Shown piece after piece: positions 8,552 to 29,253 of a DNA stretch of 32,000 bases. The first letter of the stretch is position 1. Each line of letters starts with the position of its first letter. Source of the DNA: Thermoplasmatota archaeon (GTDB lineage: Archaea > Thermoplasmatota > Penumbrarchaeia > JASLWR01); assembly GCA_030740765.1 (NCBI GenBank), contig JASLWR010000028.1, positions 6,958 to 38,957 of the forward strand, read 5' to 3'. A program made the translations under genes and the position numbers. Below the pieces are notes generated by a model that saw nothing but the letters and a program-made list of their open reading frames with translations, had not been told where the DNA came from and searched no databases.

Positions 8552-9856
8552 ATGCAAAGATTGAATTATTACGAAATACTCGGCGTCTCCTCCGGAGCAG
8601 AGACGAAGGAAATAAAGAAAGCTTACCGGAGAATGGCCGAACTTCATCACCCGGATAAAATGAATACCAATGATGTCAAGCTAATCGAACTTGCCACAGA
8701 GGAAATGATTTTGATCAACGAGGCCAAAGATATTCTTCTCGACGACCAAACCCGCCGTAAATATGATCTGGAAATGCAAAATACGAGTTACATCTCGGGG
8801 CGGCAAGAAGAGGAAAATGCTCTCGTAAAGATGATAGTGCAGTCCCAAAACGTCCTTTCCAGTATCGGGGAATGCGGGGTGGATATTAAGGAAGCTGAGA
8901 AGTATTTCTTTCAGGCCAAGTATGCTTTCCAGAACCGATACTACAGGAACGGTCTCGAGCTTCTTCAATATGCTGTAAGATCGGCAAGAGATGCTCATTA
9001 CCAGTTTGCAGTGAGAGAGATCCTTGCGGCCCGAAACCGGATATTGGCGGTGGCTGAAGAAGGCTACAACGTGGATTTTGCAAAGAACATTCTCATCCAG
9101 GCAAAACCAGCCATAGAGGACGGGAACTACGAACAGGCTACAGAGTTCGCAAAAGCGGCTGTGAAAGCATCCAAAAAGATTAAGGAAACGGAAAAGGAGA
9201 TAACAAGGCAGGGTTACACGCCACCATCGGAAGAGGATGTATTTGCTGCAACTGCTGCGAGTCCAAAAAGTATGAACGTGAGTTGGGATGCGGCACCAGT
9301 TTCTGAAAAGGAAAAGATGGAAATATCCATCACATCAGCAAAGGATTACGTTGACCATCTGACTGAGGACGAGTTCAATGAAGTGAAGATACTCATGGCG
9401 GAAAAAGAGAAGGAAATAAGGATGAAGAAAAGGCTTGAGCGGGATTTCATAAAGATAGAGATCGCCTCTAGATACAAAGATATCATGAAGAGGTTTCAGG
9501 AATACCAGCGAATGGAGGAGGAGACCATCCATGAGATCCTCGAACGGTATGAAGGGGGGAAGAAGGATGAAATGGATTTCGACCTGGACCTGGGCAATAT
9601 GGAGTTCATCGATGACAAAGACATTCCCAAGGAGGACAAGGAAGTCATCGGAGCCGATTGGGATGAGGCGGAGAAAACGAAGAAAAAACTTGTCTATAAA
9701 TCCGTACTGACCGAGGCATGGGCCGACGGCGTGGTGACAGAGGATGAGGAAGCCATGCTGGAACAGCTCAGGGCTTCTCTTGACCTTCCCATTGACGAAC
9801 ACCAGAAAATGGAAGAGGACATAATAAAGAAATTACTGCTGAACAATTATCTATGA
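8552..9856 (+). CDS. J-domain protein with long helical middle and TerB-like C-terminal segment
   Basis: The J domain is NYYEILGVSSGAETKEIKKAYRRMAELHHPDK (HPD present). The C-terminus, LTEAWADGVVTEDEEAMLEQLRASLDLPIDEHQKM, resembles TerB/DjlA-type helices. The ATG at 8552 follows a GGTGAT SD; the track start at 8447 overlaps the UbiA gene. Confidence 0.88.
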   Translation: MQRLNYYEILGVSSGAETKEIKKAYRRMAELHHPDKMNTNDVKLIELATEEMILINEAKDILLDDQTRRKYDLEMQNTSYISGRQEEENALVKMIVQSQNVLSSIGECGVDIKEAEKYFFQAKYAFQNRYYRNGLELLQYAVRSARDAHYQFAVREILAARNRILAVAEEGYNVDFAKNILIQAKPAIEDGNYEQATEFAKAAVKASKKIKETEKEITRQGYTPPSEEDVFAATAASPKSMNVSWDAAPVSEKEKMEISITSAKDYVDHLTEDEFNEVKILMAEKEKEIRMKKRLERDFIKIEIASRYKDIMKRFQEYQRMEEETIHEILERYEGGKKDEMDFDLDLGNMEFIDDKDIPKEDKEVIGADWDEAEKTKKKLVYKSVLTEAWADGVVTEDEEAMLEQLRASLDLPIDEHQKMEEDIIKKLLLNNYL

Positions 9857-10965
9857 GGTTGGGAACCATCGCAATACGTTATAATAAACTCTTTTTTGAA
9901 TTTTTCGAAATTACCCTTGTCAATGGAAGCCCGAATATTTTTCATCAAGCGCATCATGAAGTGAAGATTGTGGACGGTTAATAATCTCATTGCCAGCAGT
10001 TCCTTGACGCCAAAGAGATGGTGAAGATAGGCTCGCGAGTAACATTTGCATGTGGAGCAATCGCATTCTTCATCGATCTTTTCTATTCGTCCCTTGAAGC
10101 CTGACGAGTTGATGTTCACGGATCCCTTATTCGTAAGCATGGTCCGGTGCCTCGCATTCCTGGTGGGATAGACACTATCGAATATATCAACTCCCTTTTC
10201 CACCGCCAAAATAATATCCACCGGCGTTCCCACACCCATCAGATATTTCGGTCTGTCGCGGTGCAGGATGTCCAATTGGTACCCTGTGGCCTTGTGCATT
10301 TCCACTTTGGACTCCCCCAGGCAGAGGCCTCCTATCCCGTATCCATCGCATTCGATTTTATTCAATTCTCTTGCACTCTTCTGGCGGTAACTGCGACTGG
10401 TGCCTCCCTGGGCAATGGCAAATTTCATCTGGTCCGGTTTTTTATGGGATTCAGAGAACTCTCGGGCCCACCTAGTGGTTCTTACAACTGCCTTCTCTAC
10501 CCGGGCGTCGTTGCTGTTAAGGGGAGCGCAGTCATCAAGGAACATAGCGACATCAGCTCCAATCTTCTCCTGCATACCGGAGGAAAAGTCGGGTGTTATC
10601 AACTCCTGACGTCCGTCAAAGGGACTCTTCAGCATTATTCCTTCCTCTGTCACCTTTGGTTTGAAACCGTCTCGAACGATCTGAAACCCCCCCGAATCGG
10701 TGAAGCTACTTCTTGGCCAGTTCATGAAACCGTGAAGCCCACCCGCCTTGTCTATTACCTCCGTTCCCGGCCTGAGGTGAAGCAGGTATGCATTCGCAAT
10801 AATGTTCTGCACGTCTAGCTCCAGAAGATCGCCTGCGGACATGGTTTTCACCGATGCCTTGGTTGCAACCGGCATGAAAACCGGTGTTCTTACATCTATA
10901 TGTGAAGTATGAAGAATGCCCGTCCGGGCCCCCTGGGGGCCAGCTTCATTTACCACCGTAAACAT
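9847..10965 (-). CDS. tgt: tRNA-guanine transglycosylase, bacterial (queuine/preQ1) type, 372 aa
   Basis: Colinear with E. coli Tgt from memory: ARTGIL, TPVFMPVATKASVK, LHLRPG, GLHGFMNWPRSSFTDSGGFQI, FLDDCAP, AIAQGG, DGYGIGGLCLGE, PKYLMGVGTPVDI, FDSVYPTRNARH, zinc site CDCSTCKCYSRAYLHHL, LTVHNLHFMMRLM. The ATG at 10965 follows GTGAGGA. The GTG at 10977 in the track is an alternative start. Confidence 0.9.
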   Translation of the reverse strand: MFTVVNEAGPQGARTGILHTSHIDVRTPVFMPVATKASVKTMSAGDLLELDVQNIIANAYLLHLRPGTEVIDKAGGLHGFMNWPRSSFTDSGGFQIVRDGFKPKVTEEGIMLKSPFDGRQELITPDFSSGMQEKIGADVAMFLDDCAPLNSNDARVEKAVVRTTRWAREFSESHKKPDQMKFAIAQGGTSRSYRQKSARELNKIECDGYGIGGLCLGESKVEMHKATGYQLDILHRDRPKYLMGVGTPVDIILAVEKGVDIFDSVYPTRNARHRTMLTNKGSVNINSSGFKGRIEKIDEECDCSTCKCYSRAYLHHLFGVKELLAMRLLTVHNLHFMMRLMKNIRASIDKGNFEKFKKEFIITYCDGSQPHR

Positions 10966-11031
10966 GTAATTCCTCACGAATGGTTTATCGTATTTACTTC
11001 TGGTTGTCGTAATTCTTACGAAAACGTTATT

Positions 11032-12204
11032 ATGATTATTTGTATATTGTGCGCTTCGATATTCATGGATTTTAATGATAGTCTCAATATCATACGTTTA
11101 CTGGTCGGCCTTATAGTACTTGTGATAGGATCAGTTACGGACATCAGGACGAGAAAGGTCCCGAACCGGCTCTGGCTTATCTCCGGTGCGATCGCGTCAC
11201 TGCTCCTGGTGGCGTACATCGCTCACGAGAGTTCGAACGTTATACCAGTTCTATTGACATTGACCGTCATTTTCTATTACTATTATTTCTACTCCGACCT
11301 GGAATTCAATGGACTGCCAAAGGGAAACGACAGGTTCTTTGCGATCTTGGGTGTTGCATCCATAGGCTTCTACATATGGGCCATTTTTTATTACGATATA
11401 CCTATGAATATTTCAATCCTTCTATTGATTACCTTCGTCCTTCTCATGATAAACGAGGTCATGCTGCTCCGAAAAGGAACCAGCTCCCGGATGGCATGGC
11501 TGATATTATTAATAATGTGCTTCATAACCCTGGGATTTCTTTCTCAATACGACATCAGCTCCATCGAAAAGGGGGTGCCCATAGCCGCAACCGGGACACC
11601 TGGCTTAGACTCCTCGTTCATGCTGATCACTTCTATATTCCTTATGATAACTGCCATTTACGCGATGTACTGCTCCGGGATAATCATGGGTGGGGCCGAT
11701 GCAAAAGGATTGATGCTGGTTTCACTGCTTCTTCCTGCATACCCGGCTGTATCCGGACTTCACATGGATACCTATTTCTATGAAGTCCTTGATAAAATAC
11801 CGCTTCAAGCCTTTATTTTTCCATTCTCAATGACTATACTCATCAACGGCGCGTTGCTACTTCTCCTATATCCATTATTCTTTCTAGGATTGAACCTCAT
11901 ACGAAAGGATTTTAAATTCCCATACTGCCTATTCGGTTACCGGCTCGATCTCGATAAATTCGAAAAGAAGTTCGTATGGCTCCTGGAGATCATAAAGGAC
12001 GGAAAGAGAAAGATGGTTCTATCCCCCCCCAGGGAGAAGGCTGAGGAAAAGAAGCTATTAAAGCAGTTGGTGGATGCCGGTGAAAAGAGGATATGGGTGC
12101 AACCCAAGATACCATTCCTTGTTGCAGTGACCGTGGGCTATTTGATCGCCATCGTATTCGGCAACGCCATACATCTCATCATCAACCTGATTCCTAAGAT
12201 ATAG
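11032..12204 (+). CDS. A24-family aspartic peptidase (archaeal prepilin/preflagellin peptidase, long form with C-terminal extension)
   Basis: The two catalytic Asp motifs are GSVTDIRTRKVPN and IIMGGADAKGLM. The protein is multi-TM, with a soluble insert (KFEKKFVWLLEIIKDGKRKMV...EKRIWVQPKIPF) before the last TM, as in archaeal FlaK-like enzymes. The start is set at the ATG at 11032. The track ORF from 10909 overlaps tgt. Confidence 0.85.
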   Translation: MIICILCASIFMDFNDSLNIIRLLVGLIVLVIGSVTDIRTRKVPNRLWLISGAIASLLLVAYIAHESSNVIPVLLTLTVIFYYYYFYSDLEFNGLPKGNDRFFAILGVASIGFYIWAIFYYDIPMNISILLLITFVLLMINEVMLLRKGTSSRMAWLILLIMCFITLGFLSQYDISSIEKGVPIAATGTPGLDSSFMLITSIFLMITAIYAMYCSGIIMGGADAKGLMLVSLLLPAYPAVSGLHMDTYFYEVLDKIPLQAFIFPFSMTILINGALLLLLYPLFFLGLNLIRKDFKFPYCLFGYRLDLDKFEKKFVWLLEIIKDGKRKMVLSPPREKAEEKKLLKQLVDAGEKRIWVQPKIPFLVAVTVGYLIAIVFGNAIHLIINLIPKI

Positions 12205-12248
12205 GTAGGATCCCGCTGGCGAAACGACATTTTTTATGGGAAACGGTA

Positions 12249-14243
12249 ATGTATATGGAAATAGAGATACTAGACCAGGAAGGATTTGCCTCTGTAAAAG
12301 AGCTTCGTTTTCGATCCAACGATGATGCTGAGTGTTTCACCACTCCCGCAGCGGTATTCGTTCCTTTTCTATGGAACGGAAAACGGATGAATGATGACGA
12401 GTCTATAAATAATATTTTTGAGAAGATATATTCATTATTTCCTATCGCTAACATATCGGGTATTGCACATCATAACTTCAATGATCAGGATTTTAAATTA
12501 TTTCTATCATGTGATGATGCACCGGTGGGTGAACCGTTTGCTCCCCCGAAGACCCTCTTTTGTCAGCCCACGGGATTTCTCTATCCTCCAGAGCTTGCCC
12601 AAAATGACACAAAAGGGGGTGATATTGCTTATTTTCAGATGAGAGATTCAGAAAAGAGCCCGGTAAACGGACCCGGTGTGGTGGCCCCGACGCATCTATC
12701 TCACATTTACGGGAAACCGCGCCAGATTATCGAGTTGGTCCGCCGACTGAGAACCCAATACAAGGAGGAAAACCTTTTTTATGCACCTGGTATCGCGGAC
12801 CCGTACCGGCTACCTTATCTCGTTTATCTTGGTTTCGACCTCTTCGATACGGTGAAGGCTGCCAGAGATTCCAGTTCATTGATATACTGGGACACACTGG
12901 CCTCCCGCCAACTGTCAGATATTACGGGTCAGGATCTTGATGCCTGTAAATGCGGGGGCTGCATAAAGCTTAATGAAATACTGAATAATGCCGGGTCATT
13001 CGGGAAATTACCGAATCTCAGCGGGGATGTCATGTATACAACGCTGGCAAGTTATCTTTACGTACACAACTGTCTTAGGCTTGCAAATGCAGTTCGTGAA
13101 ACCGGAGAAATTATCAAAAACAAAAATCTCTACAGCTACGCTTATAGCCATTCCATTCATAGCCCACCTGCAGCTGCTGCCTTGAGGTTTTTCCACTGTG
13201 AACTGGCTTCGGATCTGGTGAAGGTATCTCCCAGAGTGTCAAGTCATACCATAATTGTGGGTCAGAGTGAAATGATCCATCTGCCAGACATCTTCAGTTA
13301 TGCATCTCGATTGAAAGAAACCTATGTGCCGCCAAAACGTGATATTCTCCTGCTGCTGCCCTGTTCATTTAAAAAACCCTATTCCCGCTCAAAGACGCAC
13401 CGGATAATTAGAAGGGTTATTGACAGCCATCCGTTGAGGTGGAACCTTCATTGTGTGGTGGTGACCTCCCCCTTGGGCATCGTGCCCATTGAACTCGATA
13501 ACAGCTATCCGGCAAAGAACTACGATATACCGGTGACAGGTGACTGGGACACAGGTGAAAGACTGAGAGTGGATGAACTTCTGGTGCGCTTGATCGAGCG
13601 AGGAACTTACGAACACGTCATAGGGTACCTTGGGAAGGAGAATTATATTATAAGTGATAATCTGGAAAAATACTTTCCGGACCGGTACCTCATTGATGAA
13701 GAACCGACCTCGCCCGAAGCTCTTAACCGTTTGAATGATATACTGAACTCCATCATGGAGAACGCTAATCTTGTACCGAACAACAAGAAAAGAACTCGAT
13801 CGGGAATACCATTCAAAACAAGGGATGCTTGGGGTGTTTTGACATTTCAGTTCGATGCAGACATCGCCGAAAGACTATTGAAGGATTCAAACCTGAAAGG
13901 TAGATGGCCAATGTATTCGCTGGTGGACGGCGAAACCGGGGGCCAGATCGCAAAGTACATCCCGGAGCGGGGCATGTTCTCACTGGGAAAAGGCGCGGCA
14001 AAGAGATTGAGCGGGATATCCAGCAATCGGGTATTTATCGAGGATTTTCATCCCAAGGGAACTATTTTCTGCGTAGGGATCTCCGGAGCGGATACGAATA
14101 TCCGGCCGCTAGATGAGGTTTTGGTCTATCACGGTGACGATCTCCGTGCCATTGGAAGAGCACTGGTCACTGGGGACGCCATGAGCCAGAGAACACGGGG
14201 ACAGGGCGTTAAGGTCCGACATCGAATATCAATGAGGGTATGA
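12249..14243 (+). CDS. arcS: Archaeosine synthase ArcS (TgtA2): degenerate TGT-like N-domain, ArcS-specific domain, C-terminal PUA
   Basis: 664 aa. LLPCSFKKPYSRSKTH is an exact match to the published ArcS motif PC-X3-KPY-X2-S-X2-H. YAPGIADPYRLPYLVYLGFDLFDT is TGT-like. The C-terminus, VFIEDFHPKGTIFCVGISGADTNIRPLDEVLVYHGDDLRAIGRALV, is PUA-like. Confidence 0.88.
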   Translation: MYMEIEILDQEGFASVKELRFRSNDDAECFTTPAAVFVPFLWNGKRMNDDESINNIFEKIYSLFPIANISGIAHHNFNDQDFKLFLSCDDAPVGEPFAPPKTLFCQPTGFLYPPELAQNDTKGGDIAYFQMRDSEKSPVNGPGVVAPTHLSHIYGKPRQIIELVRRLRTQYKEENLFYAPGIADPYRLPYLVYLGFDLFDTVKAARDSSSLIYWDTLASRQLSDITGQDLDACKCGGCIKLNEILNNAGSFGKLPNLSGDVMYTTLASYLYVHNCLRLANAVRETGEIIKNKNLYSYAYSHSIHSPPAAAALRFFHCELASDLVKVSPRVSSHTIIVGQSEMIHLPDIFSYASRLKETYVPPKRDILLLLPCSFKKPYSRSKTHRIIRRVIDSHPLRWNLHCVVVTSPLGIVPIELDNSYPAKNYDIPVTGDWDTGERLRVDELLVRLIERGTYEHVIGYLGKENYIISDNLEKYFPDRYLIDEEPTSPEALNRLNDILNSIMENANLVPNNKKRTRSGIPFKTRDAWGVLTFQFDADIAERLLKDSNLKGRWPMYSLVDGETGGQIAKYIPERGMFSLGKGAAKRLSGISSNRVFIEDFHPKGTIFCVGISGADTNIRPLDEVLVYHGDDLRAIGRALVTGDAMSQRTRGQGVKVRHRISMRV

Positions 14244-15114: not shown

Positions 15115-18100
15115 ATGGTGGGCCATATGGAAGAGAATAAACCAGAAGAGGAGAGCAAACCAGAAATGAAGGGCAATCCGGGTGTGGATAACGATCCAGA
15201 AGATGAGAACGGTCCGGGTATGGATAACGATCCGGAAGTGGATGGCGATCCGGAAGTGGATAACGATCCGGAAATAAAAAACAAGCCAGTGCAGGGTTTC
15301 ACTCCAAAAATTGGAATGGAACTGAAGCCTCTCGTGGACAAGGAGAACGATTTCATCGTCCTTGGCAGGACAAAGGGCGAGCACGAGGAATTCGGCTTGA
15401 GAGGTCTTATGGACATCGGCGTTGTGGGAGAGAGCCAGACCACGGGAGAGGACCATCTTTCTCACAAGATAATGATGGATAATCAATTCCCACACATCAT
15501 GTTCATTTGCGGCAAACGTGGTTCCGGAAAATCATATACTCTCGGTCTTATAGCCGAGGAATTGGCAAAGAGCGCAGAAGGTATTGGAACCATTCTTATT
15601 GATCCTATAGGTATCTTCTGGTCATTGAAGCGGGAGAACGTTTCGAAGAATGAATTGAAATTGCTTGACTCCTACGGGCTTAATCCCATGAACTTCGAAA
15701 ATGTGAAGGTAATTACACCTCTTGGATATGAGGAAGGGATGGAGGCGATACTGGACGGGTCGTTCTCAATATCAGTGGCCGAGATGACCGCAGGCGACTG
15801 GTGTACCGTGTTCGATATCAGAAGATTCAAGGCCCAGGGACTTTTGATCGGTGATGCCTTAACCAAGGTCCGGGAGGGCTATATTGCCATCTACGGGAAC
15901 CGAAATATCGAGATGCCAGGAAAACCCGAGTATTACTCAATAGGCGATATCATACAATGCATCGAGCACGACGAGGACATGCAGTCCAAGAAAAAAGGTT
16001 ACGCTACCTCTACCAGGCGTTCCATTGCCGCAAGGTTTCAGGCAGTTGGAAATTGGGGACTTTTTTCCCGTGAAGGAACGCCTATACAGACCATCGCTGC
16101 ACGCAACAATGTTACAGTTATCGATGTCTCACATCCGAAATTGGACAATGATAAACGCTCCCTGATAGTAGGGATCGTAGCAAGAAAGATACTGGAAGGC
16201 CGAATTCAAGCATCTAAGAAGGAGGAAGCAAGATCATTGGGAATGCCCGTCTCAATGGAAGGAACCTTGCCGGTTACCTGGCTCCTCATCGATGAAGCCC
16301 ATCTCATCCTGCCCCGAAGCGGTTCGACGGCCGCCACCGATGCTCTAGTTAACTACGCAAAGCTTGGGCGAAGACCGGGATGCGCCTTGGTTCTTGCTAC
16401 CCAGAGACCCGCTGCCACGGACGATAACGTATTGTCCCAGGTGGATATGATGATCAGTCACAACCTGGCCCTGGAGGAGGATATGGTCTCTCTTCGAAAG
16501 AGGCTCCCGTCAAAAGTTCCACCTTCGTTGGTCACTTCCGATTTCATCCGGGCAATACCTATTGGCATGGGAATACTTGCCGACCAGAAGACGCAGAGCA
16601 GGACCATGATGGTGAAATTCCGTCCCAGGCAGTCCTACCACTCGGGAAAAGCGGCAGTACCTACCAATGAGGTTCCGGATGAGGGAATTATGGAAGGAAC
16701 CCCCGCTCAGGTCTCACCCATTTTGAAATTTAAGGTCGAAAGACGTGAAGGCTCGATATTGAGACCATCCCTGAACGTAGATCAACTGCTTATAAGGATC
16801 GATAGTACATCCCAGGAAAGGGGCGTGAAAAAAGAACCTGTTTTTGTAATTCAGGGTGAGGACCTGCTTTTCAGGGACAAGGAGGAGCGAGAAAAGGCGG
16901 AGAAAGAGAAATTGCAGAAGGAAAGGTTGGAGAAAGAGAAATTGGAGAAGGAGAGGTTGGAGAAAGGGAAATTGGAGAAAGAGAAATTGGAGAAGGAGAA
17001 GTTGGAGAAGGAGAAGTTAGAGATGGAGAAGTTGGAGAGGGAGAAGTTGGAGAAGGAGAAGTTGGAGAAGGAGAAGTTAGAGATGGAGAAGAGGTTGGAG
17101 AAAGAGAAATTGGAGAAGGAGAGGTTGGAGAAAGGGAAATTGGAGAAAGAGAAATTGGAGAAGGAGAAGTTGGAGAAGGAGAAGTTAGAGATGGAGAAGT
17201 TGGAGAAGGAGAAGTTGGAGAGAGCCGCCGAAAAAACGCATAGTAAAAAGATAAGTCCAAAAAAGGTATTGGACAATATTGTCGATGATATGGAGGAACT
17301 GGGAGGACCGAAAGTAAAGAAGAAAGTAACGAAAGGGCCGAAGACAAACGTCAAGGATAAGTCGGTAAAAGAAAAAACCGCAAAGGAAAACGCGGACCAA
17401 TGGATCAGGAAAGCTGTAATCGAGAAAGTAAAGCAGGCTGAACTTCCCGACATTATGAAAGAAATACTTGGTCTCGGTCATCACTATCTTTTTAAGAACG
17501 AGGATCGGTCCTTGGCCCAGCAGTTCACTAGCGAGATCATCGATATGGGGAAAAGCAGTTTCCTTGTCATCTCAAGATCACCCCCGGCTAGATCGAAGAG
17601 TCTATTCGAAGGTAGGCAAAGCAAATCGTATTGGCTGTCGAAATCCGAAACGAAAGAGAGCCTGAACCCACATAACCTTGAAAAGATATCCTTCACTATT
17701 GGCCGATTTTTAGAGCAGAATCGGGGTGCGGTCATATATTTCGACGGGTTGGAATTCCTGATCTCAAACAACGATTTCAATAAGGTAATGAGGTTTATAG
17801 AGACCGTGCATGAAAAATGCCAGTTGATGGAGGGAGCGGTGATATTTCCCTTTACGCCGGAGATCATAAGCAAACGGGACATGTCCAGGGTCCAGACGGA
17901 GATGGACGTGTTGTTCGAAAAAGAGGATCTTTTACCTTTCTCTCTTGGCAGGTCCGGAAGCGAAGGAGGAAAAGAGACGGTGAAAAAGGCGGAAGCGGAA
18001 GGGGAACACGGGAGGGAAATGAGGGAGGAGAAAGAAGATTCCCCCGAAGGGATCATAAGCTGGGACGAGGATGGTAACGAGGAAATGGAGGCCGTAAAAG

Positions 18101-19452
18101 CCGATGGAAATGCTTCCGAACCCTTCAAGGAGCCTGGGGCCAACGGATCCGACCTGGATGATGGAATGATCGCTGAAGAACCGGTGGCTGTTTCCGATAT
18201 GCCTGAAATGGGAGGTCTCGATATTGATTATTTCGCGCATCTCATCGAGATCACGAAACAAAAGAAGAAAGAACAAGGTAGGAGTGAAGTCAGAAGAGCA
18301 GGTCCGCCAAGGGTGCGTATTCCCCTGAAGGAGGAACGGGAACAGAATATCTACCCCGAAATTGGACTGAAAAAGAGTTATATTGAGCGGACAAGGACCA
18401 GCGATCACGTTCGTGGAACCGATTTCCAAACCATAAAGGTACCAAGAGTAGAGCCGGTGAAAATGATCGATGCGGAATTCACAGAAATAAATGACTCTTA
18501 CGGACGGCCCATAATTCCCGAACCGGAAAAAAAGACATCTCGAAAAACAGATGAGAAGATCACCGCCTTCAGCACTCCAAGCAAGTCACAGGAGATACAA
18601 AAAAGGCTGGACACTGAGATAACAGAGTTGAAAGAACCGGTAATGAAAGAACCCGAATGCGAGTACGTGACCGAAGGAAAAGGACATTTCTACATAGCAC
18701 CGGTGCTCTCGGAGATGGATATCGATAACTATGCCCAGCGGTCCCTGGAGGGAAAGGGTATATTGAAACAGAAAAAGATCGAAATGGTCTCGGAAGTAAA
18801 CATCACGTTCATTCCCATGATCCGTCTGTACTTCAGCAAGCTCGCAGGTTTCATAAAAAAGAAGAAAAAGGTATTCACCCTTTTCTTCGACCCTGTATCG
18901 GGAGAGCTGGTAAGGAAATATAAAAAGGGTCTCGCCCGAACCATGAACTTGCCGGTTTTGTTCGAGTATTCAAAAACCCAGGTGGACCTCCTTCTGGCTT
19001 TGCGCTCCAGTGCATTGACCGATATCGAATTGGGTCTGAAAACCAAGTTACGTTCCCAGGACCTGAAAAGGGCTCTCAATGCCCTTGAGAAAAAGGGCAT
19101 GGCGGAAAAGCGGGTCACTGGTGACGGATCATACACATATCGCAGAAAGATGGAATTCACATTGCCGGGAAATTTAACACGGGCGATCCCGGACATGCCG
19201 CATATCAGGGAAGGTAAATTATGCGTGGGGGCCGTAATGCCAAGGTACAAGGTGAAAGACGCGGAAAAGTTGATCCGGATAATGGATGACGGGATGACCC
19301 TGGAGGACCACGACACCGTCTACTATCCTTATTACATGGTGGAGATAGAGGGAAAAAGGGGACCTCGAAAGATATTCATCGATGGGATAAACGGCGGGGA
19401 GGACGAGGTATTGGGAGTTATAAAAAACCTGGAGATAAAGATTCCCAAATAG
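15115..19452 (+). CDS. 1445-aa multidomain protein: HerA/FtsK-superfamily (DUF87-type) P-loop ATPase + KLEKE coiled coil + DUF835-like module + acidic linker + C-terminal wHTH-containing module
   Basis: - ATPase: Walker A FICGKRGSGKSYTLG (about 15511-15534), Walker B WLLIDEAHLILP (about 16283), LATQRPAATDDNVLSQVDMMISHNL, and RPRQSYHSG, which is typical of archaeal COG0433/DUF87 ATPases.
- DUF835-like: SFLVISRSPP...SYWLSKSE...LNPHNLEKISFTIGRFLEQNRGAVIYFDGLEFLISNNDFNKVMRFIETVHEKC (about 17470-17925).
- wHTH-like: TQVDLLLALRSSALTDIELGLKTKLRSQDLKRALNALEKKGMAEKRV.
- No TM segments. Confidence 0.9.
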   Translation: MVGHMEENKPEEESKPEMKGNPGVDNDPEDENGPGMDNDPEVDGDPEVDNDPEIKNKPVQGFTPKIGMELKPLVDKENDFIVLGRTKGEHEEFGLRGLMDIGVVGESQTTGEDHLSHKIMMDNQFPHIMFICGKRGSGKSYTLGLIAEELAKSAEGIGTILIDPIGIFWSLKRENVSKNELKLLDSYGLNPMNFENVKVITPLGYEEGMEAILDGSFSISVAEMTAGDWCTVFDIRRFKAQGLLIGDALTKVREGYIAIYGNRNIEMPGKPEYYSIGDIIQCIEHDEDMQSKKKGYATSTRRSIAARFQAVGNWGLFSREGTPIQTIAARNNVTVIDVSHPKLDNDKRSLIVGIVARKILEGRIQASKKEEARSLGMPVSMEGTLPVTWLLIDEAHLILPRSGSTAATDALVNYAKLGRRPGCALVLATQRPAATDDNVLSQVDMMISHNLALEEDMVSLRKRLPSKVPPSLVTSDFIRAIPIGMGILADQKTQSRTMMVKFRPRQSYHSGKAAVPTNEVPDEGIMEGTPAQVSPILKFKVERREGSILRPSLNVDQLLIRIDSTSQERGVKKEPVFVIQGEDLLFRDKEEREKAEKEKLQKERLEKEKLEKERLEKGKLEKEKLEKEKLEKEKLEMEKLEREKLEKEKLEKEKLEMEKRLEKEKLEKERLEKGKLEKEKLEKEKLEKEKLEMEKLEKEKLERAAEKTHSKKISPKKVLDNIVDDMEELGGPKVKKKVTKGPKTNVKDKSVKEKTAKENADQWIRKAVIEKVKQAELPDIMKEILGLGHHYLFKNEDRSLAQQFTSEIIDMGKSSFLVISRSPPARSKSLFEGRQSKSYWLSKSETKESLNPHNLEKISFTIGRFLEQNRGAVIYFDGLEFLISNNDFNKVMRFIETVHEKCQLMEGAVIFPFTPEIISKRDMSRVQTEMDVLFEKEDLLPFSLGRSGSEGGKETVKKAEAEGEHGREMREEKEDSPEGIISWDEDGNEEMEAVKADGNASEPFKEPGANGSDLDDGMIAEEPVAVSDMPEMGGLDIDYFAHLIEITKQKKKEQGRSEVRRAGPPRVRIPLKEEREQNIYPEIGLKKSYIERTRTSDHVRGTDFQTIKVPRVEPVKMIDAEFTEINDSYGRPIIPEPEKKTSRKTDEKITAFSTPSKSQEIQKRLDTEITELKEPVMKEPECEYVTEGKGHFYIAPVLSEMDIDNYAQRSLEGKGILKQKKIEMVSEVNITFIPMIRLYFSKLAGFIKKKKKVFTLFFDPVSGELVRKYKKGLARTMNLPVLFEYSKTQVDLLLALRSSALTDIELGLKTKLRSQDLKRALNALEKKGMAEKRVTGDGSYTYRRKMEFTLPGNLTRAIPDMPHIREGKLCVGAVMPRYKVKDAEKLIRIMDDGMTLEDHDTVYYPYYMVEIEGKRGPRKIFIDGINGGEDEVLGVIKNLEIKIPK
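15175..15275 (+). repeat. In-frame acidic repeat (GATAACGATCCRGAAG units, peptide (V)DNDPE) at the N-terminus of the giant ATPase
   Basis: GGATAACGATCC[A/G]GAA occurs at about 15186, 15222 and 15258, with a GATGGCGATCCGGAAG variant at 15241. The peptide is NPGVDNDPEDENGPGMDNDPEVDGDPEVDNDPE. Confidence 0.85.
16897..17223 (+). repeat. In-frame 15-nt (pentapeptide K/R-LEKE) tandem array, about 22 units, with a 168-nt higher-order duplication
   Basis: The peptide reads EKEKLQKERLEKEKLEKERLEKGKLEKEKLEKEKLEKEKLEMEKLEREKLEKEKLEKEKLEMEKRLEKEKLEKERLEKGKLEKEKLEKEKLEKEKLEMEKLEKEKLER. By my alignment, nt 16924-17052 and 17092-17220 are identical except for one position (17039 G vs 17207 A). Confidence 0.92.
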
Positions 19453-21065: not shown

Positions 21066-21164
21066 GCCGGGGTGGCTCAGCCTGGCGGAGCGTCGGACTC
21101 ATAGGGAACTACAATCAGCTCCTGGGCTATCCGAAGGTCGCGGGTTCAAACCCCGCCCCCGGCA
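21066..21164 (+). tRNA. tRNA-Met(CAU), elongator type (or Ile2-CAU), with a 25-nt intron at 37/38 (21104-21128)
   Basis: Hand fold:
- Acceptor GCCGGGG/CCCCGGC.
- D stem GCTC/GAGC.
- Anticodon stem TCGGA/TCCGA, loop CT-CAT-A|intron|A.
- T arm GCGGG-TTCAAAC-CCCGC.
- Discriminator A; no encoded CCA.
- The intron forms a canonical BHB: a 4-bp helix C32-U33-C34-A35 with intron UGGG, flanked by 3-nt bulges UA|G and CU|A. Confidence 0.9.
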
Positions 21165-23247: not shown

Positions 23248-26200
23248 ATGGGAACTAACGAGACAGCAAAACGAACGATAAACATAATGATAGTCATCAG
23301 CATGATTTTGGGATCCCTTTCCGCAATGATATTCCTGGCGGACAGGGTGAGCGCAGGACCGATAGTTGTAATCGAGGTGACAGGTCAGAAGAGCGGCACG
23401 GCCACGGAGAATGGAGACCCCGGCGATGATATACTCTTCAACGTGAGAGTTGAGAACAATGGAGACTCAATTGCCACCATAAACCTCACAATACTCGGCG
23501 CGCCAGGGGGGTGGTCATCAACGTTAACGGGAATTAATTTCACAGTAAGTGCCGGTAATCATCAAACAGAGATACTCCGAGTAAGCATTCCAGCCAATGC
23601 CGTCGAGACTGCATCGGCATCATTAACCGTAAAATGTACCACAAATAACAAACAGGATACTTGCGAGGTTTTGGTTGACCAGGTTTACGGGTTAATCTTC
23701 GAATCGGCAGATACGATAGAATCGTCCCTCCCGGATAAAACTATCACATTCACCCTGCCGGTAAACAATACCGGAAACGGTATCGATACTACATCCTTTA
23801 CAGAAAGCGGAGCTCCTGGTGCTTGGGCTGTTTCATTCGATTCCACTAAGAACCTACCTGCATTCACGGTTGCAAATCTCGAGGTTGCCGTATACATACC
23901 TGAAAGCGCCTCCACTGGAACATACAGTATAACAGTCAGGGGAACTTCAGAGGACACGGTTACCTATTCGACAAAGACACTGACCGTAACGGTCCTTGCA
24001 GAATACGGGCTTACCGTGAGTACACTGCCTTCGGGGAACCTGGAAACCAAACCCGGGGGAAAAGTGACTTACACTTTGAACGTAGAGAACGTGGGCAATG
24101 CGAGGGACCGATTTAATCTTGCAATAGATACCGGTAACAAAACAGCAGGGTGGACCGCCACTCTGGGTACTGCCAGAACCCCTCAGGTTTCCGCCGGAGC
24201 TAAATATAATGTATCTTTATACGTGACAGCTCCAATTGGTGCCAAGGATACAGATCTGGGATATGTCAATGTAACCGCGACATCTCATAACAACGGCAGC
24301 CAATCCGAAATGGCATACACCATCACCAACGTGCTTCAGGAAAGATACCTATCCCTATCTGTTGATAATTCCTCGGTGGAGGGACCACAGAAGGGCACGG
24401 TCCGTTTCACTTTTACCCTTACCAATTCCGGAAACGGCCAGGATCGGGTGGATATAACAGGGACGCCTCCGCAGGGATGGTCCTCTCCGAACATTTCCCC
24501 TACCTATTTTGCACTCGGTGCAAGTGCCACTGGGCAGTTCACGGTGGATCAGGCCATACCTTCTGACGCACTTCACCAGGGTTATACCCTGATCGTTACG
24601 GCCAAATCCAGGGATGACAATACCAACAGTACGTCCAGCGTCACCGTTGACGTTACACAAAAATACGGGATACAGGTGACGGTGCCCGGCTCGAACTCAA
24701 AGGATTTCAATCCGGGGGAAACAAAGGTATACAACTTTACCGTGAAGAACAAAGGCAACGGTGAAGACACGTTCTCGATTTCCCAGAGCGGGATACCTCA
24801 AGGGTGGTCATGGGCATTATCGGACAGCAGCGTAACCCTTGGAGCAGCAAAGGAACAGAATGTGGGATTGGCTGTCACCGTACCAAACAACTACGAGAAC
24901 TTCGGCCCCCTGGAAGTGGAACTGATAGCAGTATCGGACGGCAACGCTACAGCCAGGGACAACTCCACCAAGATAATCATTAACGTTCAGAAGTCTTACA
25001 GCGTTGTACTGACCTGCAATAACCCGAACAAGAACGGATTCCCTGAGGATACGATATATTATGAAATAACAATCACAAACGACGGTAATGCGGAAGATCT
25101 TATCGAAATATCCATTGACGCAGGAGATTACAGCGATTGGTCTTCCATTAATGATACGCTATACACAATCGCACCCAACACATACTCCACCGTGAACCTG
25201 ACTGTAACCATACCCGCGGATCAGCCCGCTGGATATTATCATGTTAACATAACAGCCACCTCCAAACGGGCTGAGGATCAGGGAGATGATAAAAAAGATA
25301 CAATGGCCACCCGCACCAGGGTCAAACCGCTCTTCTCTGTTTATCTCTTTCCCGACGGAGGCAACGTTTCCGATGTCGCCGCCGGTATGAGCCACACTTA
25401 CCTACTTGGAGTGCAGAACCGGGGGCTGGATACCGATACCTTTGATATTTCCATTACTGGTGACAACCCGTTCACGAACTGGGTTAACATGGAGTTTAAT
25501 AATTATACTATTGAGAATCTTGGTAGAGATAAGATCGAAAGGATATCCTTTGACACGACCATCCCGGCAAATGTCTATGAAAACTATCCCAACATCAACT
25601 CTGGCACTATTACTATAACCGCTGCATCACGAGGCAACCCCGCCAGTACTTTTGCTCTCAATTTCGAAACCACCGTGAAGGCTAAATTCGGAGGTTCCCT
25701 TACATCCGAGAGCGACTACGACAGCGCATTGCCCGGGGAAAACGTCACCTTTATAGTATATCTTAAAAACACCGGATCGCTGGCAAACGATACCTTCGGG
25801 TTGAAATCACCCGACTGCCCCTTTGACCAGATTACAATCACACCGTCCCAGGTAGTGGTCAATCGTTCCGAATTTCAGGAATTCCAGATTGTTGTATTGA
25901 TAGACGATGATGCGAAAGAGGGAAATCACTTATTCAACGTTTCAGCAAGAACCGCGGGATCTGACCGGGTACTCTCGAGAGATGATGAGATCATTGCGAC
26001 ACTCCAGTTAAAGATTGGCGTTATCCAGAGATACGGTGCCAGAGCCTCCTGCGCGCTCCAAACCCAGAACGTGGCACCGAATGACTGGGTCACCTACGAG
26101 ATAGAAATCGAGAATGAGGGAAACGGTCTGGACACCTTCGATATCACCAAGGATTCCACCGTCGTGGGCCACATAGGTTGGGCCAAGATCAACATTTCCC

Positions 26201-29200
26201 GGGTTTATCTAAAGAGCGACGATACTATAAAGGTGGAGCTGAATGTATCCATCCCCAATTCCGTCGAACCCATCAATGTGATCATCTACGTGAATGCTAC
26301 TTCAAGAGGTGACAACTCGGTGGTTGCAAGCATACGGACCGTTACCACCGTGACCCAGGACTTTGCCATTCGTCTTACCACCAGCATTAATACGAAGACA
26401 ACAGACCCGGGGGCCATGGTCAAATTCTACATTGACGTTAAGAACAGGGGTACGGGAAGCGATGAAATAGAGGTATCCATAGTGAAAGAGTTGCCCGCCG
26501 GAGCCAATTCGGATTGGGCTAATATTCCCTCTGAGATGCTTGTATTCACCCTTGCACCAAATGCCATAAAGAGAATCACTGTGAACGTGACTCCTCCCGA
26601 GGACCAGGAGGTGGGTAACTTCCCAATTACTATCAAGGCGGAATCCCAGGACGACCCAGAGAAAATCTTTGAAGAGATAACTGTGACCACGCGGGTCAAT
26701 CCCAAGAGGGATTTGGCTCTGGAAGTGGCCGAGAATCGAAAGGAGGTCATCCCCAATCTCAGCGGCAGCAAGGCAACCGTAACATACTCCCTGAAGGTAA
26801 CCAACAAGGGAACGGACTCGGATACCTTCAAGCTGGAGATCAGAGGATCCGGCGACACCCCGAATTCCGATCATCCATCCTGGGTAAAACTATCTACTTA
26901 TTCAATAGGTTCTCTCGCCGAGGACAGTGACAACACCGTTACTGTCACTGTCACTATTCCCAATAACCAGGCACCCACCAATTCCGATGGATTCAATACC
27001 ACCATTTACGTTTACTCCGGGAAGAAGGGTACCGCGGATGAAATCGGTGCCACTATAACCATGGTCACCGTGATCGATACGGCATACGGGCTGGAATTAT
27101 CGGCGTCTAAAAAGCGCATGGAAACGGCCGACCTCACAAGCTTATCCGCCAAGAACCGGGAGGTGCAATTTTCCTTCAAGGTGAAGAACATCGGTACCGG
27201 TGACGACACGATCAAGTTCGATATAAACCAGAAACCCACTGGCTGGGAAGGGATCTCATTCGACGTCGGCACCGAGGATATTCTCAAGGGAGTTACCTCG
27301 AGCCATGTGCTGACGGTGAGGATAGACCGTGATGTGGCGGTTGACGATTACGACATCGAGATCAAGATAATCTCTAGGGGGGACGATACGCTTTATGAGG
27401 ATACGGATGTATACGAGACAATGAAATTTACGGTGGAAGTGACGCAGATACACCAGATCAAGATCAGTGCTGCCCAGAGCTCCAAGGAGGCAAAACCGGG
27501 GGATACGGTTACTTACACCCTTACCGTGAAGAACCGAGGTAATCAGATGGACTCCATTACCCTCGATCTACCCAACGAGATAATATACTGGAGTACTAGG
27601 ACCATATCGCCCCGGACCGTGGATATCGAACCAGACGGCTCTATAGACATAACGGTAACTTTCCGTGTTTCCAGTGACTATACCGAGGCTCTAGAGGATA
27701 CATACTATACGAACATAACTGCCACAGCAGGCGAGGGCACCGATGAGTACAAGGCATACGTGGAGCTTACTACCCTAATAGCCCAGGAGTACCTTTTCGA
27801 GGTTACCAGCAGCGATTGGGCCTCGGAAGGGAAGGTCGATGTCAATGGTGTTAAAAAGACCACGGATATTGAATTTTTCTTCGAGATCAAGAACAAGGGT
27901 AACGGTAAGGACAGTTTCAAGTTCGATCTAACAGGCGACTACTACAAGTGGGGAACTATCACGCCTCAAACTTCAGCTGAACTGGATGCTGGTGAAACCC
28001 AAAAAATAACTGTCACTGTAACCATAGGAGACGATTTCGATAAATACATGGCAAAGGATTATGAAATTGGTCTAACCGTTAAATCGGTGGGTGATGAAGA
28101 GGTTGAGGATACCGATAAAAGCTTTACGCTGACGATTGAAGAGGTGTATTCTCTGGTGATGACGAAATATCCGTCCATAACCATTAATCTCGCAGAGAAA
28201 TCCTCAGCCACGCTGGATGTGGAGGTGGAAAACGCTGGCAACAAGGATGACACCATCCGCTTCACCGTTAGGCCGGGCAGCCCTGACGATTGGGTTATAA
28301 ACATTCTACCATCCACCAAGATGATCAAGATGGGCAACGTTCAGACGGTATCCATCGAAGTCACCCCCGACGACAATGTGGAAGAGAACTATGACGACGA
28401 CGATTACAGTATAATCATTCGCGCTACCAGCGATGATGGTACTTACAAGGATTTCTCATTCAATGTAATTATCGAAATGCCTGTCCTGAAGATCACGGGG
28501 GTCACTTTCAAGGAAAGTGTTAACGCAGGTGAGGAAACCACCATAACCGTCACCGTGGAAAACAGTGGAAAAGCCGATGCGGAAGATGTTCTGATCACGT
28601 TATATGACAAGACAAAGAAAATAACCATAGGGTCCTTCGAGATTTCGATAGACGGAGTGGGAAGTGACGGAAAAGTAGTAAGTGAAACATACGATTTCAC
28701 CGATTGGGACAAGAATAAGGTAACAAAGGGCACTCACAAGGTAGAGGCAAGCCTAACCAACGAACCCTCGGGTGATACTGATGATCTTGAAAAACCAGTT
28801 GAAGTGATTGAAGAGGGAGGTGGTTGGATCTATGAGAAAGGAGCCCAGTACACAATTGGCGGACTGGTGGTCTTCTTTATAGTGGTGATAATCATCGTGC
28901 TGCTCTTCTCCCGCTCGCAGAGGCCCATACCCGAGGACTTAAAGGAAGAGATCGCAAAGGCCAAAGCCGAAGCCGAGAGGGAACGACCGAGGGAAAAGGC
29001 GGATGACGAGAAGGATGTTAAGAAGGTCAAGAAGGACGACATCGAAAAGCTCCTCACAAAAAAGACCCTGCCTTCGAAGGCACAGGCGGCATTACCACAG
29101 AGCACAAAGAAGGGAAAGGATGATAAGAAACCGGTAAAACAAGTGAAAATAAAGTGTCCCAAATGTGAGATCATACAGACGGTCACTTCCCAGAAACGCC

Positions 29201-29253
29201 CACTGGAATTCGAATGTGACGACTGCGGGATGAAATTGATCCTGAAAAAATAG
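23248..29253 (+). CDS. 2001-aa surface protein: signal peptide, 16 CARDB/NEW3-like (COG1470-type) beta-sandwich modules, one TM helix, charged cytoplasmic tail ending in a zinc ribbon
   Basis: The signal peptide is INIMIVISMILGSLSAMIFLADRVSAG. A recurrent module core, [FY]x[FLIV]x[VI]xNxGNxxDTF, occurs 16 times (VENNGD, VNNTGNGIDT, VENVGNARDRF, LTNSGNGQDRV, VKNKGNGEDTF, ITNDGNAEDLI, VQNRGLDTDTF, LKNTGSLANDTF, IENEGNGLDTF, VKNRGTGSDEI, VTNKGTDSDTF, VKNIGTGDDTI, VKNRGNQMDSI, IKNKGNGKDSF, VENAGNKDDTI, VENSGKADAED). The TM helix is YTIGGLVVFFIVVIIIVLLFS (about 28849-28911). The zinc ribbon is CPKC...CDDC (29155-29226). There are many N-x-S/T sequons. Confidence 0.92.
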   Translation: MGTNETAKRTINIMIVISMILGSLSAMIFLADRVSAGPIVVIEVTGQKSGTATENGDPGDDILFNVRVENNGDSIATINLTILGAPGGWSSTLTGINFTVSAGNHQTEILRVSIPANAVETASASLTVKCTTNNKQDTCEVLVDQVYGLIFESADTIESSLPDKTITFTLPVNNTGNGIDTTSFTESGAPGAWAVSFDSTKNLPAFTVANLEVAVYIPESASTGTYSITVRGTSEDTVTYSTKTLTVTVLAEYGLTVSTLPSGNLETKPGGKVTYTLNVENVGNARDRFNLAIDTGNKTAGWTATLGTARTPQVSAGAKYNVSLYVTAPIGAKDTDLGYVNVTATSHNNGSQSEMAYTITNVLQERYLSLSVDNSSVEGPQKGTVRFTFTLTNSGNGQDRVDITGTPPQGWSSPNISPTYFALGASATGQFTVDQAIPSDALHQGYTLIVTAKSRDDNTNSTSSVTVDVTQKYGIQVTVPGSNSKDFNPGETKVYNFTVKNKGNGEDTFSISQSGIPQGWSWALSDSSVTLGAAKEQNVGLAVTVPNNYENFGPLEVELIAVSDGNATARDNSTKIIINVQKSYSVVLTCNNPNKNGFPEDTIYYEITITNDGNAEDLIEISIDAGDYSDWSSINDTLYTIAPNTYSTVNLTVTIPADQPAGYYHVNITATSKRAEDQGDDKKDTMATRTRVKPLFSVYLFPDGGNVSDVAAGMSHTYLLGVQNRGLDTDTFDISITGDNPFTNWVNMEFNNYTIENLGRDKIERISFDTTIPANVYENYPNINSGTITITAASRGNPASTFALNFETTVKAKFGGSLTSESDYDSALPGENVTFIVYLKNTGSLANDTFGLKSPDCPFDQITITPSQVVVNRSEFQEFQIVVLIDDDAKEGNHLFNVSARTAGSDRVLSRDDEIIATLQLKIGVIQRYGARASCALQTQNVAPNDWVTYEIEIENEGNGLDTFDITKDSTVVGHIGWAKINISRVYLKSDDTIKVELNVSIPNSVEPINVIIYVNATSRGDNSVVASIRTVTTVTQDFAIRLTTSINTKTTDPGAMVKFYIDVKNRGTGSDEIEVSIVKELPAGANSDWANIPSEMLVFTLAPNAIKRITVNVTPPEDQEVGNFPITIKAESQDDPEKIFEEITVTTRVNPKRDLALEVAENRKEVIPNLSGSKATVTYSLKVTNKGTDSDTFKLEIRGSGDTPNSDHPSWVKLSTYSIGSLAEDSDNTVTVTVTIPNNQAPTNSDGFNTTIYVYSGKKGTADEIGATITMVTVIDTAYGLELSASKKRMETADLTSLSAKNREVQFSFKVKNIGTGDDTIKFDINQKPTGWEGISFDVGTEDILKGVTSSHVLTVRIDRDVAVDDYDIEIKIISRGDDTLYEDTDVYETMKFTVEVTQIHQIKISAAQSSKEAKPGDTVTYTLTVKNRGNQMDSITLDLPNEIIYWSTRTISPRTVDIEPDGSIDITVTFRVSSDYTEALEDTYYTNITATAGEGTDEYKAYVELTTLIAQEYLFEVTSSDWASEGKVDVNGVKKTTDIEFFFEIKNKGNGKDSFKFDLTGDYYKWGTITPQTSAELDAGETQKITVTVTIGDDFDKYMAKDYEIGLTVKSVGDEEVEDTDKSFTLTIEEVYSLVMTKYPSITINLAEKSSATLDVEVENAGNKDDTIRFTVRPGSPDDWVINILPSTKMIKMGNVQTVSIEVTPDDNVEENYDDDDYSIIIRATSDDGTYKDFSFNVIIEMPVLKITGVTFKESVNAGEETTITVTVENSGKADAEDVLITLYDKTKKITIGSFEISIDGVGSDGKVVSETYDFTDWDKNKVTKGTHKVEASLTNEPSGDTDDLEKPVEVIEEGGGWIYEKGAQYTIGGLVVFFIVVIIIVLLFSRSQRPIPEDLKEEIAKAKAEAERERPREKADDEKDVKKVKKDDIEKLLTKKTLPSKAQAALPQSTKKGKDDKKPVKQVKIKCPKCEIIQTVTSQKRPLEFECDDCGMKLILKK

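Follow-up and report, generated by a model that had tools for sequence, protein, structure and literature searches.

The FtsK motor combines on one polypeptide an ATPase ring, a long linker and a winged-helix (gamma) domain that recognizes DNA. Archaea, to our knowledge, lack FtsK, and beyond HerA-NurA and the secretion and packaging motors we know of no assigned roles for most archaeal ATPases of the HerA/FtsK superfamily. The subject here is one such ATPase, encoded in a stretch of 32,000 nucleotides (the window, whose coordinates are used throughout) from a Thermoplasmatota archaeon (GTDB lineage Archaea; Thermoplasmatota; Penumbrarchaeia; JASLWR01; GenBank assembly GCA_030740765.1, contig JASLWR010000028.1, positions 6,958 to 38,957 of the forward strand). 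The gene is a single unbroken open reading frame (ORF) that begins with ATG at 15115 and runs to 19452 on the + strand; its product of 1445 amino acids (aa) contains no transmembrane segment (the maximal Kyte-Doolittle mean over 19 residues is 1.34) and reads as a cytoplasmic, multidomain, HerA-like ATPase with full-length orthologues. An earlier note, made from these letters alone, had taken it for a giant in-frame fusion of architecture not previously described. That it is one gene, read in one frame, is correct. Judged by its relatives, it is not a singular fusion: it is a member of an existing, conserved and unannotated family. We rate as about evenly balanced the chance that this uncharacterised archaeal family of the HerA/FtsK superfamily consists of nucleic-acid motors equipped with a winged helix-turn-helix (wHTH) tail for targeting.

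How does the protein compare with the systems that have been described? With HerA, whether as HerA-NurA or as Sir2-HerA or DUF4297-HerA, it shares the P-loop clade, the DUF87 domain, a partial HerA_C domain, Walker A and B motifs and the QRP region. The kinship is nevertheless very remote: the NCBIfam HerA equivalog models return 21-38 bits against cutoffs of 800-970, so that no match at equivalog level is reached. Beside the window gene there is no effector partner, NurA and Sir2 included, and HerA has nothing like the long linker and wHTH-containing tail that the window protein carries. With FtsK/SpoIIIE the common logic would be that of a superfamily ring motor, a long low-complexity linker and a winged-helix domain on one polypeptide. 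However, the Pfam FtsK_SpoIIIE profile finds no match anywhere in the 1445 aa, there is no membrane anchor, the order of domains differs (motor, linker, wHTH in the window protein), and FtsK/SpoIIIE offers no counterpart of the duplicated alpha/beta domain in which the wHTH is embedded. The resemblance to FtsK is one of analogy, not of membership.

An unannotated family

A search with the ATPase domain yields 1440 homologues, the best of which are 51-56 % identical. Most of those listed are archaeal proteins of ~800-900 aa, from Thermoplasmatota, Theionarchaea, Methanofastidiosa and metagenome-assembled genomes (MAGs) later labelled Hadarchaeota, and their C-termini align with the last 265 aa of the window protein at 20-28 % identity. 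The motor with its linker and wHTH tail is, therefore, the normal state of this ATPase clade, shared by dozens of lineages, and the earlier note, which found it odd that a HerA-type ATPase should continue for another 900 aa instead of standing alone, overstated the case. Relative to this archaeal family of "DUF87 domain-containing" proteins, with which it is homologous over the ATPase (39-56 % identity) and the C-terminal module, the clade of the window protein differs in adding DUF835 and extra spacers to the linker. Homologues in Asgard archaea and Bathyarchaeia are of similar length (~800-900 aa). The one Asgard sequence that was read (P0046) is extended at its N-terminus and differs at its C-terminus; in profile searches, its Asgard and Bathyarchaeia relatives form a class with no match to the C-terminal module. 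The DPANN lineages have a core form of ~440 aa that is ATPase only.

The version with DUF835 is itself anything but unique. When aa 775-1445 were run with HMMER against 1.84 billion cluster representatives, proteins matching DUF835 together with the tail came up; BLAST with the separate parts identifies the order ATPase, DUF835, C-terminal module in 15 complete proteins of 1180-1652 aa, one of which (P0121, 1417 aa, the closest orthologue) is 86 %, 79 % and 86 % identical to the window protein over these three parts, respectively; cluster representatives with the three-part form number 16. Scanning the GTDB species genomes gave 494 loci; profile searches on the best 80 of these place the three-part architecture in one reading frame in ~30 species, nearly all of them labelled as Thermoplasmatota or Thermoplasmata MAGs. 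In a crude neighbour-joining tree all DUF835-bearing proteins fall into one clade, along with 16 forms that are devoid of DUF835, so that a single gain followed by loss is not separable from repeated gain.

Homology thus displays a family core that consists of a catalytically intact motor, a long low-complexity linker and a basic C-terminal module; a clade centred on the Thermoplasmatota, in which the window gene belongs, with an inactivated KaiC-like DUF835 domain inserted into the linker; and, in what is left of the linker, rapidly evolving charged helices of the ER/K type, joined in distant members by a SAP motif. To what extent is all this new? The whole architecture and the alpha/beta units of its tail have no dedicated Pfam or NCBIfam model, and no paper on the combination of ATPase, DUF835 and wHTH was found in the literature; to this extent the earlier note was right to know of no described family. 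The proteins of the family are already public, under generic names such as "DUF835 domain-containing protein", "DUF87 domain-containing protein" and "ATP-binding protein". An exact-sequence look-up returned no entry for the window protein itself, whose closest relatives come from MAGs labelled "uncultured archaeon" and from Thermoplasmatota. What is new is the recognition of an uncharacterised family, of a duplicated alpha/beta domain that hosts a wHTH, and of an inactive KaiC-like domain within a pumping ATPase. The family is widespread and yet unstudied: it extends over the Thermoplasmatota, Theionarchaea, Methanofastidiosa and Hadarchaeota, and further to variants of the Asgard type and to the core forms of DPANN. 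The searches brought up no member from an archaeon that is in culture or open to genetics. The practical value is moderate: experiments are given a defined family with its domain boundaries, and no new mechanism is revealed.

Some by-products of these searches can be recorded here. Four proteins of the ATPase clade (P0017, P0020, P0018 and P0019) have FHA (PF00498) or papain-like Peptidase_C1 (PF00112) domains; going by such matches, the motor of this clade has accreted several different accessory domains. A partial homologue from Thermoplasmatota (P0003, loci L001/L017) ends at a contig edge, and its last ~70 residues weakly match 3HCDH_N (3-hydroxyacyl-CoA dehydrogenase) where linker would be expected; this may be a chimeric contig end. 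P0123 (289 aa), the one apparently free-standing C-terminal module that was checked, proved to be a fragment lying where a 1.4-kb contig ends.

The motor

The ATPase domain occupies aa 61-570 (15295..16824), of which aa 61-125 could form the HAS-barrel that canonical HerA has at its N-terminus. DUF87 (PF01935, the central domain of helicase HerA) matches aa 129-359 at 37.9 bits against a cutoff of 23.2, and HerA_C matches aa 386-451 below its threshold. Walker A (GKRGSGKS, aa 133-140, 15511..15534), Walker B (LLIDEAH, aa 390-396, 16282..16302) and the ATQRP motif (aa 428-432, 16396..16410) are all present as the earlier note had quoted them; across the alignment of 16 full-length relatives they do not vary, and neither do H449 and L451. 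With its profile match above cutoff and its catalytic motifs intact, the assignment to the HerA/DUF87 type holds. By sequence, the nearest solved structures are the HerA hexamers 8xau, 4d2i and 8ziq (E 2e-8, ~36 bits), whose matches cover only the half that contains Walker B and the sensor. The best of the PADLOC models for defence-associated HerA scores 60.7 bits, confined to aa 328-467 (again the Walker B/sensor region). PADLOC and PHROG searches of the protein gave matches at the level of the superfamily only, and a defence-system or viral origin was rejected on this account. Profile and motif evidence together put the protein within the HerA/FtsK superfamily and outside HerA in the narrow sense.

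The C-terminal module

An AlphaFold2 model of the tail, made with a 23-sequence alignment, is confident (pLDDT 87.4, pTM 0.81) and lays the module out as a strand, helix and long-hairpin sheet (model residues 12-96), a winged helix (101-165) and a second strand-helix-hairpin unit (185-256). In the protein these correspond to alpha/beta unit 1 (aa 1188-1277, 18676..18945), modelled as a helix with four antiparallel strands and ending in FFDPVSGELV; the wHTH (aa ~1280-1344, 18952..19146), nested between the two units; and alpha/beta unit 2 (aa 1360-1445, 19192..19449), which has the motif YYPYYMVEIEG...IFIDGINGGED. hhalign finds units 1 and 2 to be homologous (probability 95.5 %, E 1.3e-8), and both beta-hairpin motifs exist and are conserved throughout the family; the earlier note had described precisely this, a winged-helix-like segment bracketed by two copies of a motif. 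The module has a net charge of +14.

The identity of the wHTH rests on Foldseek and on Pfam matches in family members. Foldseek against the Protein Data Bank (PDB) matches the winged helix only, over ~65-70 residues and with probability 1.0, to MarR, ArsR/SmtB and TFE-alpha; the top 50 are all wHTH proteins, the best E value is 2e-3 and none reaches 1e-3. Against the BFVD library of viral structures, too, the wHTH is the sole part that is matched. Matches to TrmB, MarR_2 or TFIIE_alpha occur in 13-15 of 23 family members in Pfam, with TrmB reaching E 1e-6 in homologues. The window protein's own match is weak (aa ~1286-1341; MarR_2 at 15.8 bits vs 27), and the gathering threshold of the MarR/TrmB family proper is not attained. 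The alpha/beta units are another matter: their profiles have no match among PDB sequences at a cutoff as loose as E<=10, and Pfam is silent on them in the window protein and in family members alike. Modelled by itself, unit 1 (pLDDT 72 only) has cystatins and BamE as its best Foldseek neighbours, at E 0.8-1.1. A PepSY/cystatin-like fold, for which support from Pfam, from PDB sequences and from significant Foldseek matches is absent, is a lead and no more.

The DUF835 insertion

DUF835 (PF05763) matches aa 803-930 at 86.2 bits against a cutoff of 33.1, over profile positions 10-136 of 136; scanned alone, the region scores 91.4 bits. The possibility that aa 760-930 might lie outside DUF835, which the earlier note had raised against its own reading, is disposed of by this score. 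The domain as a whole (aa 788-935, 17476..17919) is KaiC/RecA-like and inactivated: no GxxxxGK[ST] P-loop is found in it, the position of Walker A reads FLVISRSPPARSK, and the subfamily consensus there is L.ISR.HP.K. In the 16-relative alignment, the subfamily conserves only WLS, G878 and E929/D931. DUF835-only relatives are ~25-35 % identical to the window domain in a full HMMER search. (A word-indexed search with DUF835 alone produced 19 candidates, none of them scoring, although the full search did find relatives.)

Galperin et al. (2018, PMC5847659) list DUF835 among the output domains of archaeal response regulators, in Methanomicrobia and Thermoplasmata, and class it as an inactivated KaiC-like domain ("iKaiC"). 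These REC-DUF835 proteins and the window protein have in common a Pfam domain well above threshold and the loss of the P-loop; they differ in the company that the domain keeps, which in the window protein is a HerA-type motor and a wHTH tail instead of REC, PAS or membrane sensors. We know of no earlier instance of an inactivated KaiC-like signalling domain within a motor of this kind. The DUF835 branch is a concrete target for testing KaiC-like domains as archaeal signalling hubs.

Charged helices and linkers

Between motor and DUF835 lies a charged helix of aa 590-705 (16882..17229), encoded largely by a 15-nucleotide (nt) tandem unit that Tandem Repeats Finder counts in 21.3 copies at 16899..17221 and that specifies KLEKE. 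A higher-order duplication of 168 nt, in which ~130 nt are identical but for one mismatch, is contained in the array; the near-identity of these copies implies either that the array expanded very recently or that its copy number in the assembly is uncertain. The earlier note had seen here a recently expanded charged coiled coil. Expansion is borne out by the duplication; the coiled coil is not. D, E, K and R account for 74 % of aa 590-705, there is no Pro, opposite charges are spaced i/i+4 at 55 of 112 positions, and the hydrophobic residues show no preferred position modulo 7 but cluster modulo 5, which makes for a pentad and not a heptad. At the same position P0121 has EKAER/EKAEK repeats with Ala replacing Leu, so that a hydrophobic core is not required in this segment. 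A two-stranded coiled coil was therefore rejected (no heptad seam, the charge content, the Leu-to-Ala swap), and the segment is probably better read, as far as its residue pattern goes, as an ER/K single alpha-helix spacer. Such spacers occur, for example, in myosin VI/X and in caldesmon. Shared with them are the dominance of E, K and R, the absence of Pro, the dense i/i+4 opposite charges and the lack of a seam; the window helix, itself a prediction, differs from them in having Leu at every fifth residue. In a second orthologue (P0122) the same position is of acidic low complexity, and in distant orthologues a comparable E/R/K helix is situated on the opposite side of DUF835.

A Lys-rich basic linker (aa 706-787, 17230..17475; net charge +9 for aa 706-775) connects the charged helix to DUF835. 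Linker 2 (aa 936-1187, 17920..18675) follows it; its first half is the acidic low-complexity segment that had been noted earlier, and its second half contains short motifs (GGLDIDYF..., VRIP..., DAEFTEI) that are kept in close orthologues. A SAP motif scores above the Pfam threshold in linker 2 of three distant orthologues (P0128, P0129, P0134), whereas Pfam finds no SAP domain in the window protein. At the other end of the protein, the acidic, Pro-rich N-terminal tail (aa 1-60, 15115..15294; 33 % D/E) is hypervariable between orthologues and includes an 18-nt tandem unit, in 5.4 copies at 15176..15273 according to Tandem Repeats Finder. At the site of this acidic repeat P0121 has a GDNMS repeat, and linker 2 of P0122 has a tandem peptide repeat of its own, made of EEEKREGGGAGEVEGA units. 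Turnover of repeats is thus concentrated in the linkers, and the folded domains of these close orthologues stay 50-86 % identical.

Mechanism and alternatives

What might such a protein do? If the ATPase assembles as a ring in the manner of HerA and FtsK, the ring would be expected to spend ATP on the translocation or remodelling of a nucleic acid, which is most likely DNA. The tethered wHTH module, together with SAP where it is present, would then be the targeting or loading domain, following the logic by which the FtsK motor is joined to its gamma winged helix. DUF835, for want of a P-loop, should be incapable of hydrolysing ATP; its most likely role would be that of a surface for regulation or oligomerisation, linking the motor with signalling partners of the KaiC type. 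The ER/K helix could serve as a stiff spacer of ~15-20 nm (~116 residues at a rise of 0.15 nm each), setting the reach from ring to tail. Several considerations weigh against a wHTH-targeted motor: 1) ring assembly, ATPase activity and the substrate, be it DNA, RNA or protein, are extrapolated from membership of the superfamily; 2) the protein is only remotely like any HerA that has been characterised (36 bits to the solved structures; equivalogs at 38 vs >=800), so that transfer of mechanism is weak; 3) a wHTH can serve protein-protein contacts instead of DNA binding; 4) the alpha/beta units that surround it have no solved structural relative by PDB sequence or by Foldseek; 5) the gene's neighbourhood has no clear functional anchor. 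A bolder version can be formulated, in which this pan-archaeal family is an unrecognised chromosomal DNA motor, a functional counterpart of FtsK loaded by its own wHTH, wired to KaiC-type signalling in the Thermoplasmatota through DUF835 and perhaps linked, as recurrent Tgt, ArcS and QueCDE neighbours hint, to the modification of nucleic acids with 7-deazaguanine (preQ0/archaeosine); we regard it as distinctly doubtful.

The principal competitor is an ATP-dependent regulator of transcription or signalling that does not translocate DNA at all: the wHTH would bind promoters, and the ATPase ring and DUF835, the latter taking input from the archaeal KaiC-type network, would switch its activity. 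The wHTH does resemble the MarR, TrmB and ArsR repressors as well as TFE-alpha, response regulators of archaea are known to use DUF835 for output (PMC5847659), and one source labels a family member a "predicted transcriptional regulator". Yet the motor belongs with the HerA/FtsK pumping ATPases and not with the STAND or AAA+ clades of regulators, the ATPase-only form of DPANN exists without any wHTH, and SAP motifs and ER/K spacers are atypical of repressors; all told, a regulator is unlikely, if still to be taken seriously. An anti-phage HerA paired with an adjacent nuclease, after the fashion of Sir2-HerA or DUF4297-HerA, is very improbable. It is suggested by SfsA, a PD-(D/E)xK nuclease whose gene ends 156 bp upstream (as the earlier note had it), and by the weak matches to PADLOC HerA models, but these span the Walker B and sensor region only, the flanks are made up of housekeeping genes (Pth2, HAD, ArcS, Tgt), and no effector gene recurs across the loci of homologues. 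SfsA and the ABC ATPase gene on the other side are kept only in the closest syntenic relative (L006, ~80 % identity), whose gene order is identical to that of the window; L007 (74 %) and L008 (66 %) retain the gene with none of the window's neighbours, and all other loci likewise lack them. The adjacency is accordingly one of local synteny and not of conserved association, and the suggestion, drawn from these neighbours, that a HerA-nuclease partnership is at work finds no support. Scarcely credible, lastly, is an artefact of assembly by which two or three genes have been joined through a low-complexity repeat. Assemblers do err in sequence such as the array at 16899..17221 and the acidic linkers, and the near-identical 130-nt duplication leaves the number of KLEKE copies uncertain. 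The order of ATPase, DUF835 and C-terminal module is nevertheless found in single ORFs in at least 30 independent assemblies (the species counted above among the best 80 of 494 loci), whose linkers differ markedly in sequence. It is because independent assemblies share this order that it cannot be an assembly join, and the earlier worry about a chimera lapses.

A further proposal ties the family to 7-deazaguanine metabolism, in the form of the synthesis or insertion of preQ0 or archaeosine; the motor might, for example, offer nucleic acid to a transglycosylase, in loose analogy to DpdA/DpdB of bacterial DNA modification. In the window and in L006 a Tgt gene and an ArcS-like gene are just upstream; in 16 Thermoplasmatota loci QueD-QueC-QueE, of the preQ0 pathway, are ~3 kb downstream; in two Methanofastidiosa loci a TgtA-like gene is divergently adjacent; two loci with the ATPase-only form (L083, L085) have Tgt ~4 kb upstream; and in a Theionarchaeon an ArcS-like gene (DUF5591+PUA) is 9.4 kb upstream. 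Genes of 7-deazaguanine metabolism are accordingly found within 0-10 kb of family members in 4-5 separate synteny blocks of ~15-20, a different gene in each. The chance of such recurrence may be put at ~1e-3, as a rough estimate that assumes ~3 % per block and 15-20 independent blocks and is not a computed test. Against this, adjacency is direct only in the Methanofastidiosa pair, with unrelated genes intervening elsewhere; no such neighbour is seen at L007-L014 or at the Hadarchaeota, Asgard and most DPANN loci; the Tgt of the window scores as an ordinary enzyme of the tRNA type and not as DpdA; and 7-deazaguanine genes are housekeeping genes that can sit anywhere. The recurrence may be due to chance, and the proposed tie is improbable.

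The neighbourhood

The order of genes in the window is Tgt (on the - strand), peptidase A24, the ArcS-like gene, SfsA, the gene itself, a LolD/MacB-type ABC ATPase, a HAD phosphatase, a tRNA, Pth2 and DUF99. The ABC ATPase begins 112 bp downstream (~110 bp had been claimed). Clustering of the flanking ORFs of 38 loci, in which only the recurrent clusters were scanned with Pfam, confines synteny to one group of 16-17 related Thermoplasmatota and brings out no recurrent partner gene. The annotated flanks of five further homologues contain no shared partner or nuclease, and neither the window nor the annotated flanks of nine homologue loci contain NurA, Mre11 or Rad50 neighbours. At the loci that were read, there is one copy of the family gene in housekeeping surroundings. 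We infer that the gene stands alone on the chromosome and forms no operon with SfsA or the ABC ATPase.

The 7-deazaguanine loci referred to above are at 9847-14243 in the window and at L018 14345-16193, L004 5918-6949, L088 8915-9955, L083 2584-3741, L085 2978-4180 and L089 1-638. In the 16 Thermoplasmatota loci the complete downstream order is EMC6-like membrane protein, transglutaminase-like protein, QueD, QueC and QueE. The Tgt of the window (9847-10977, - strand) scores as a tRNA guanosine(34) transglycosylase of the bacterial type (TIGR00430, 409 bits vs a cutoff of 307) and reaches only 138 bits with the archaeal TgtA model; its context is otherwise archaeal; the Tgt at L083 is also bacterial-type, at 467 bits. 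The ArcS-like gene (DUF5591+PUA) is at 12249-14243 (+) and reaches 332 against the NCBIfam ArcS cutoff of 440.

Homologues elsewhere have neighbours of their own. In Theionarchaea (L005 10026-12251, L089 12812-15034) a Cdc48-type double AAA ATPase lies just downstream of the homologue, after a small PRC-domain gene; an Asgard locus (L086 13824-17199) also has a Cdc48-type double AAA ATPase downstream, there with a Snf7/ESCRT-III gene in between. In Methanofastidiosa a 505-aa DUF8179 gene (L004 9420-10937, L088 12430-13947) starts 1-2 bp after the annotated end of the homologue and looks like an operon partner specific to this group.

The window holds three further features of some interest in themselves. 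At 3322-4812 (-) a protein of 496 aa begins with ~230 aa that have no Pfam match; its C-terminal half contains a Ser/Thr kinase domain of the eukaryotic type (Pkinase, 164 bits). At 23248-29253 (+) a 2001-aa ORF with NPCBM_assoc, FixG_C-type Ig, CARDB and DUF11 repeats probably encodes a giant surface or adhesin-like protein. Finally, the tRNA at 21066-21164 (+), which Rfam recognizes at 56 bits and which the default mode of ARAGORN does not report, is 99 nt long and probably contains an archaeal intron.

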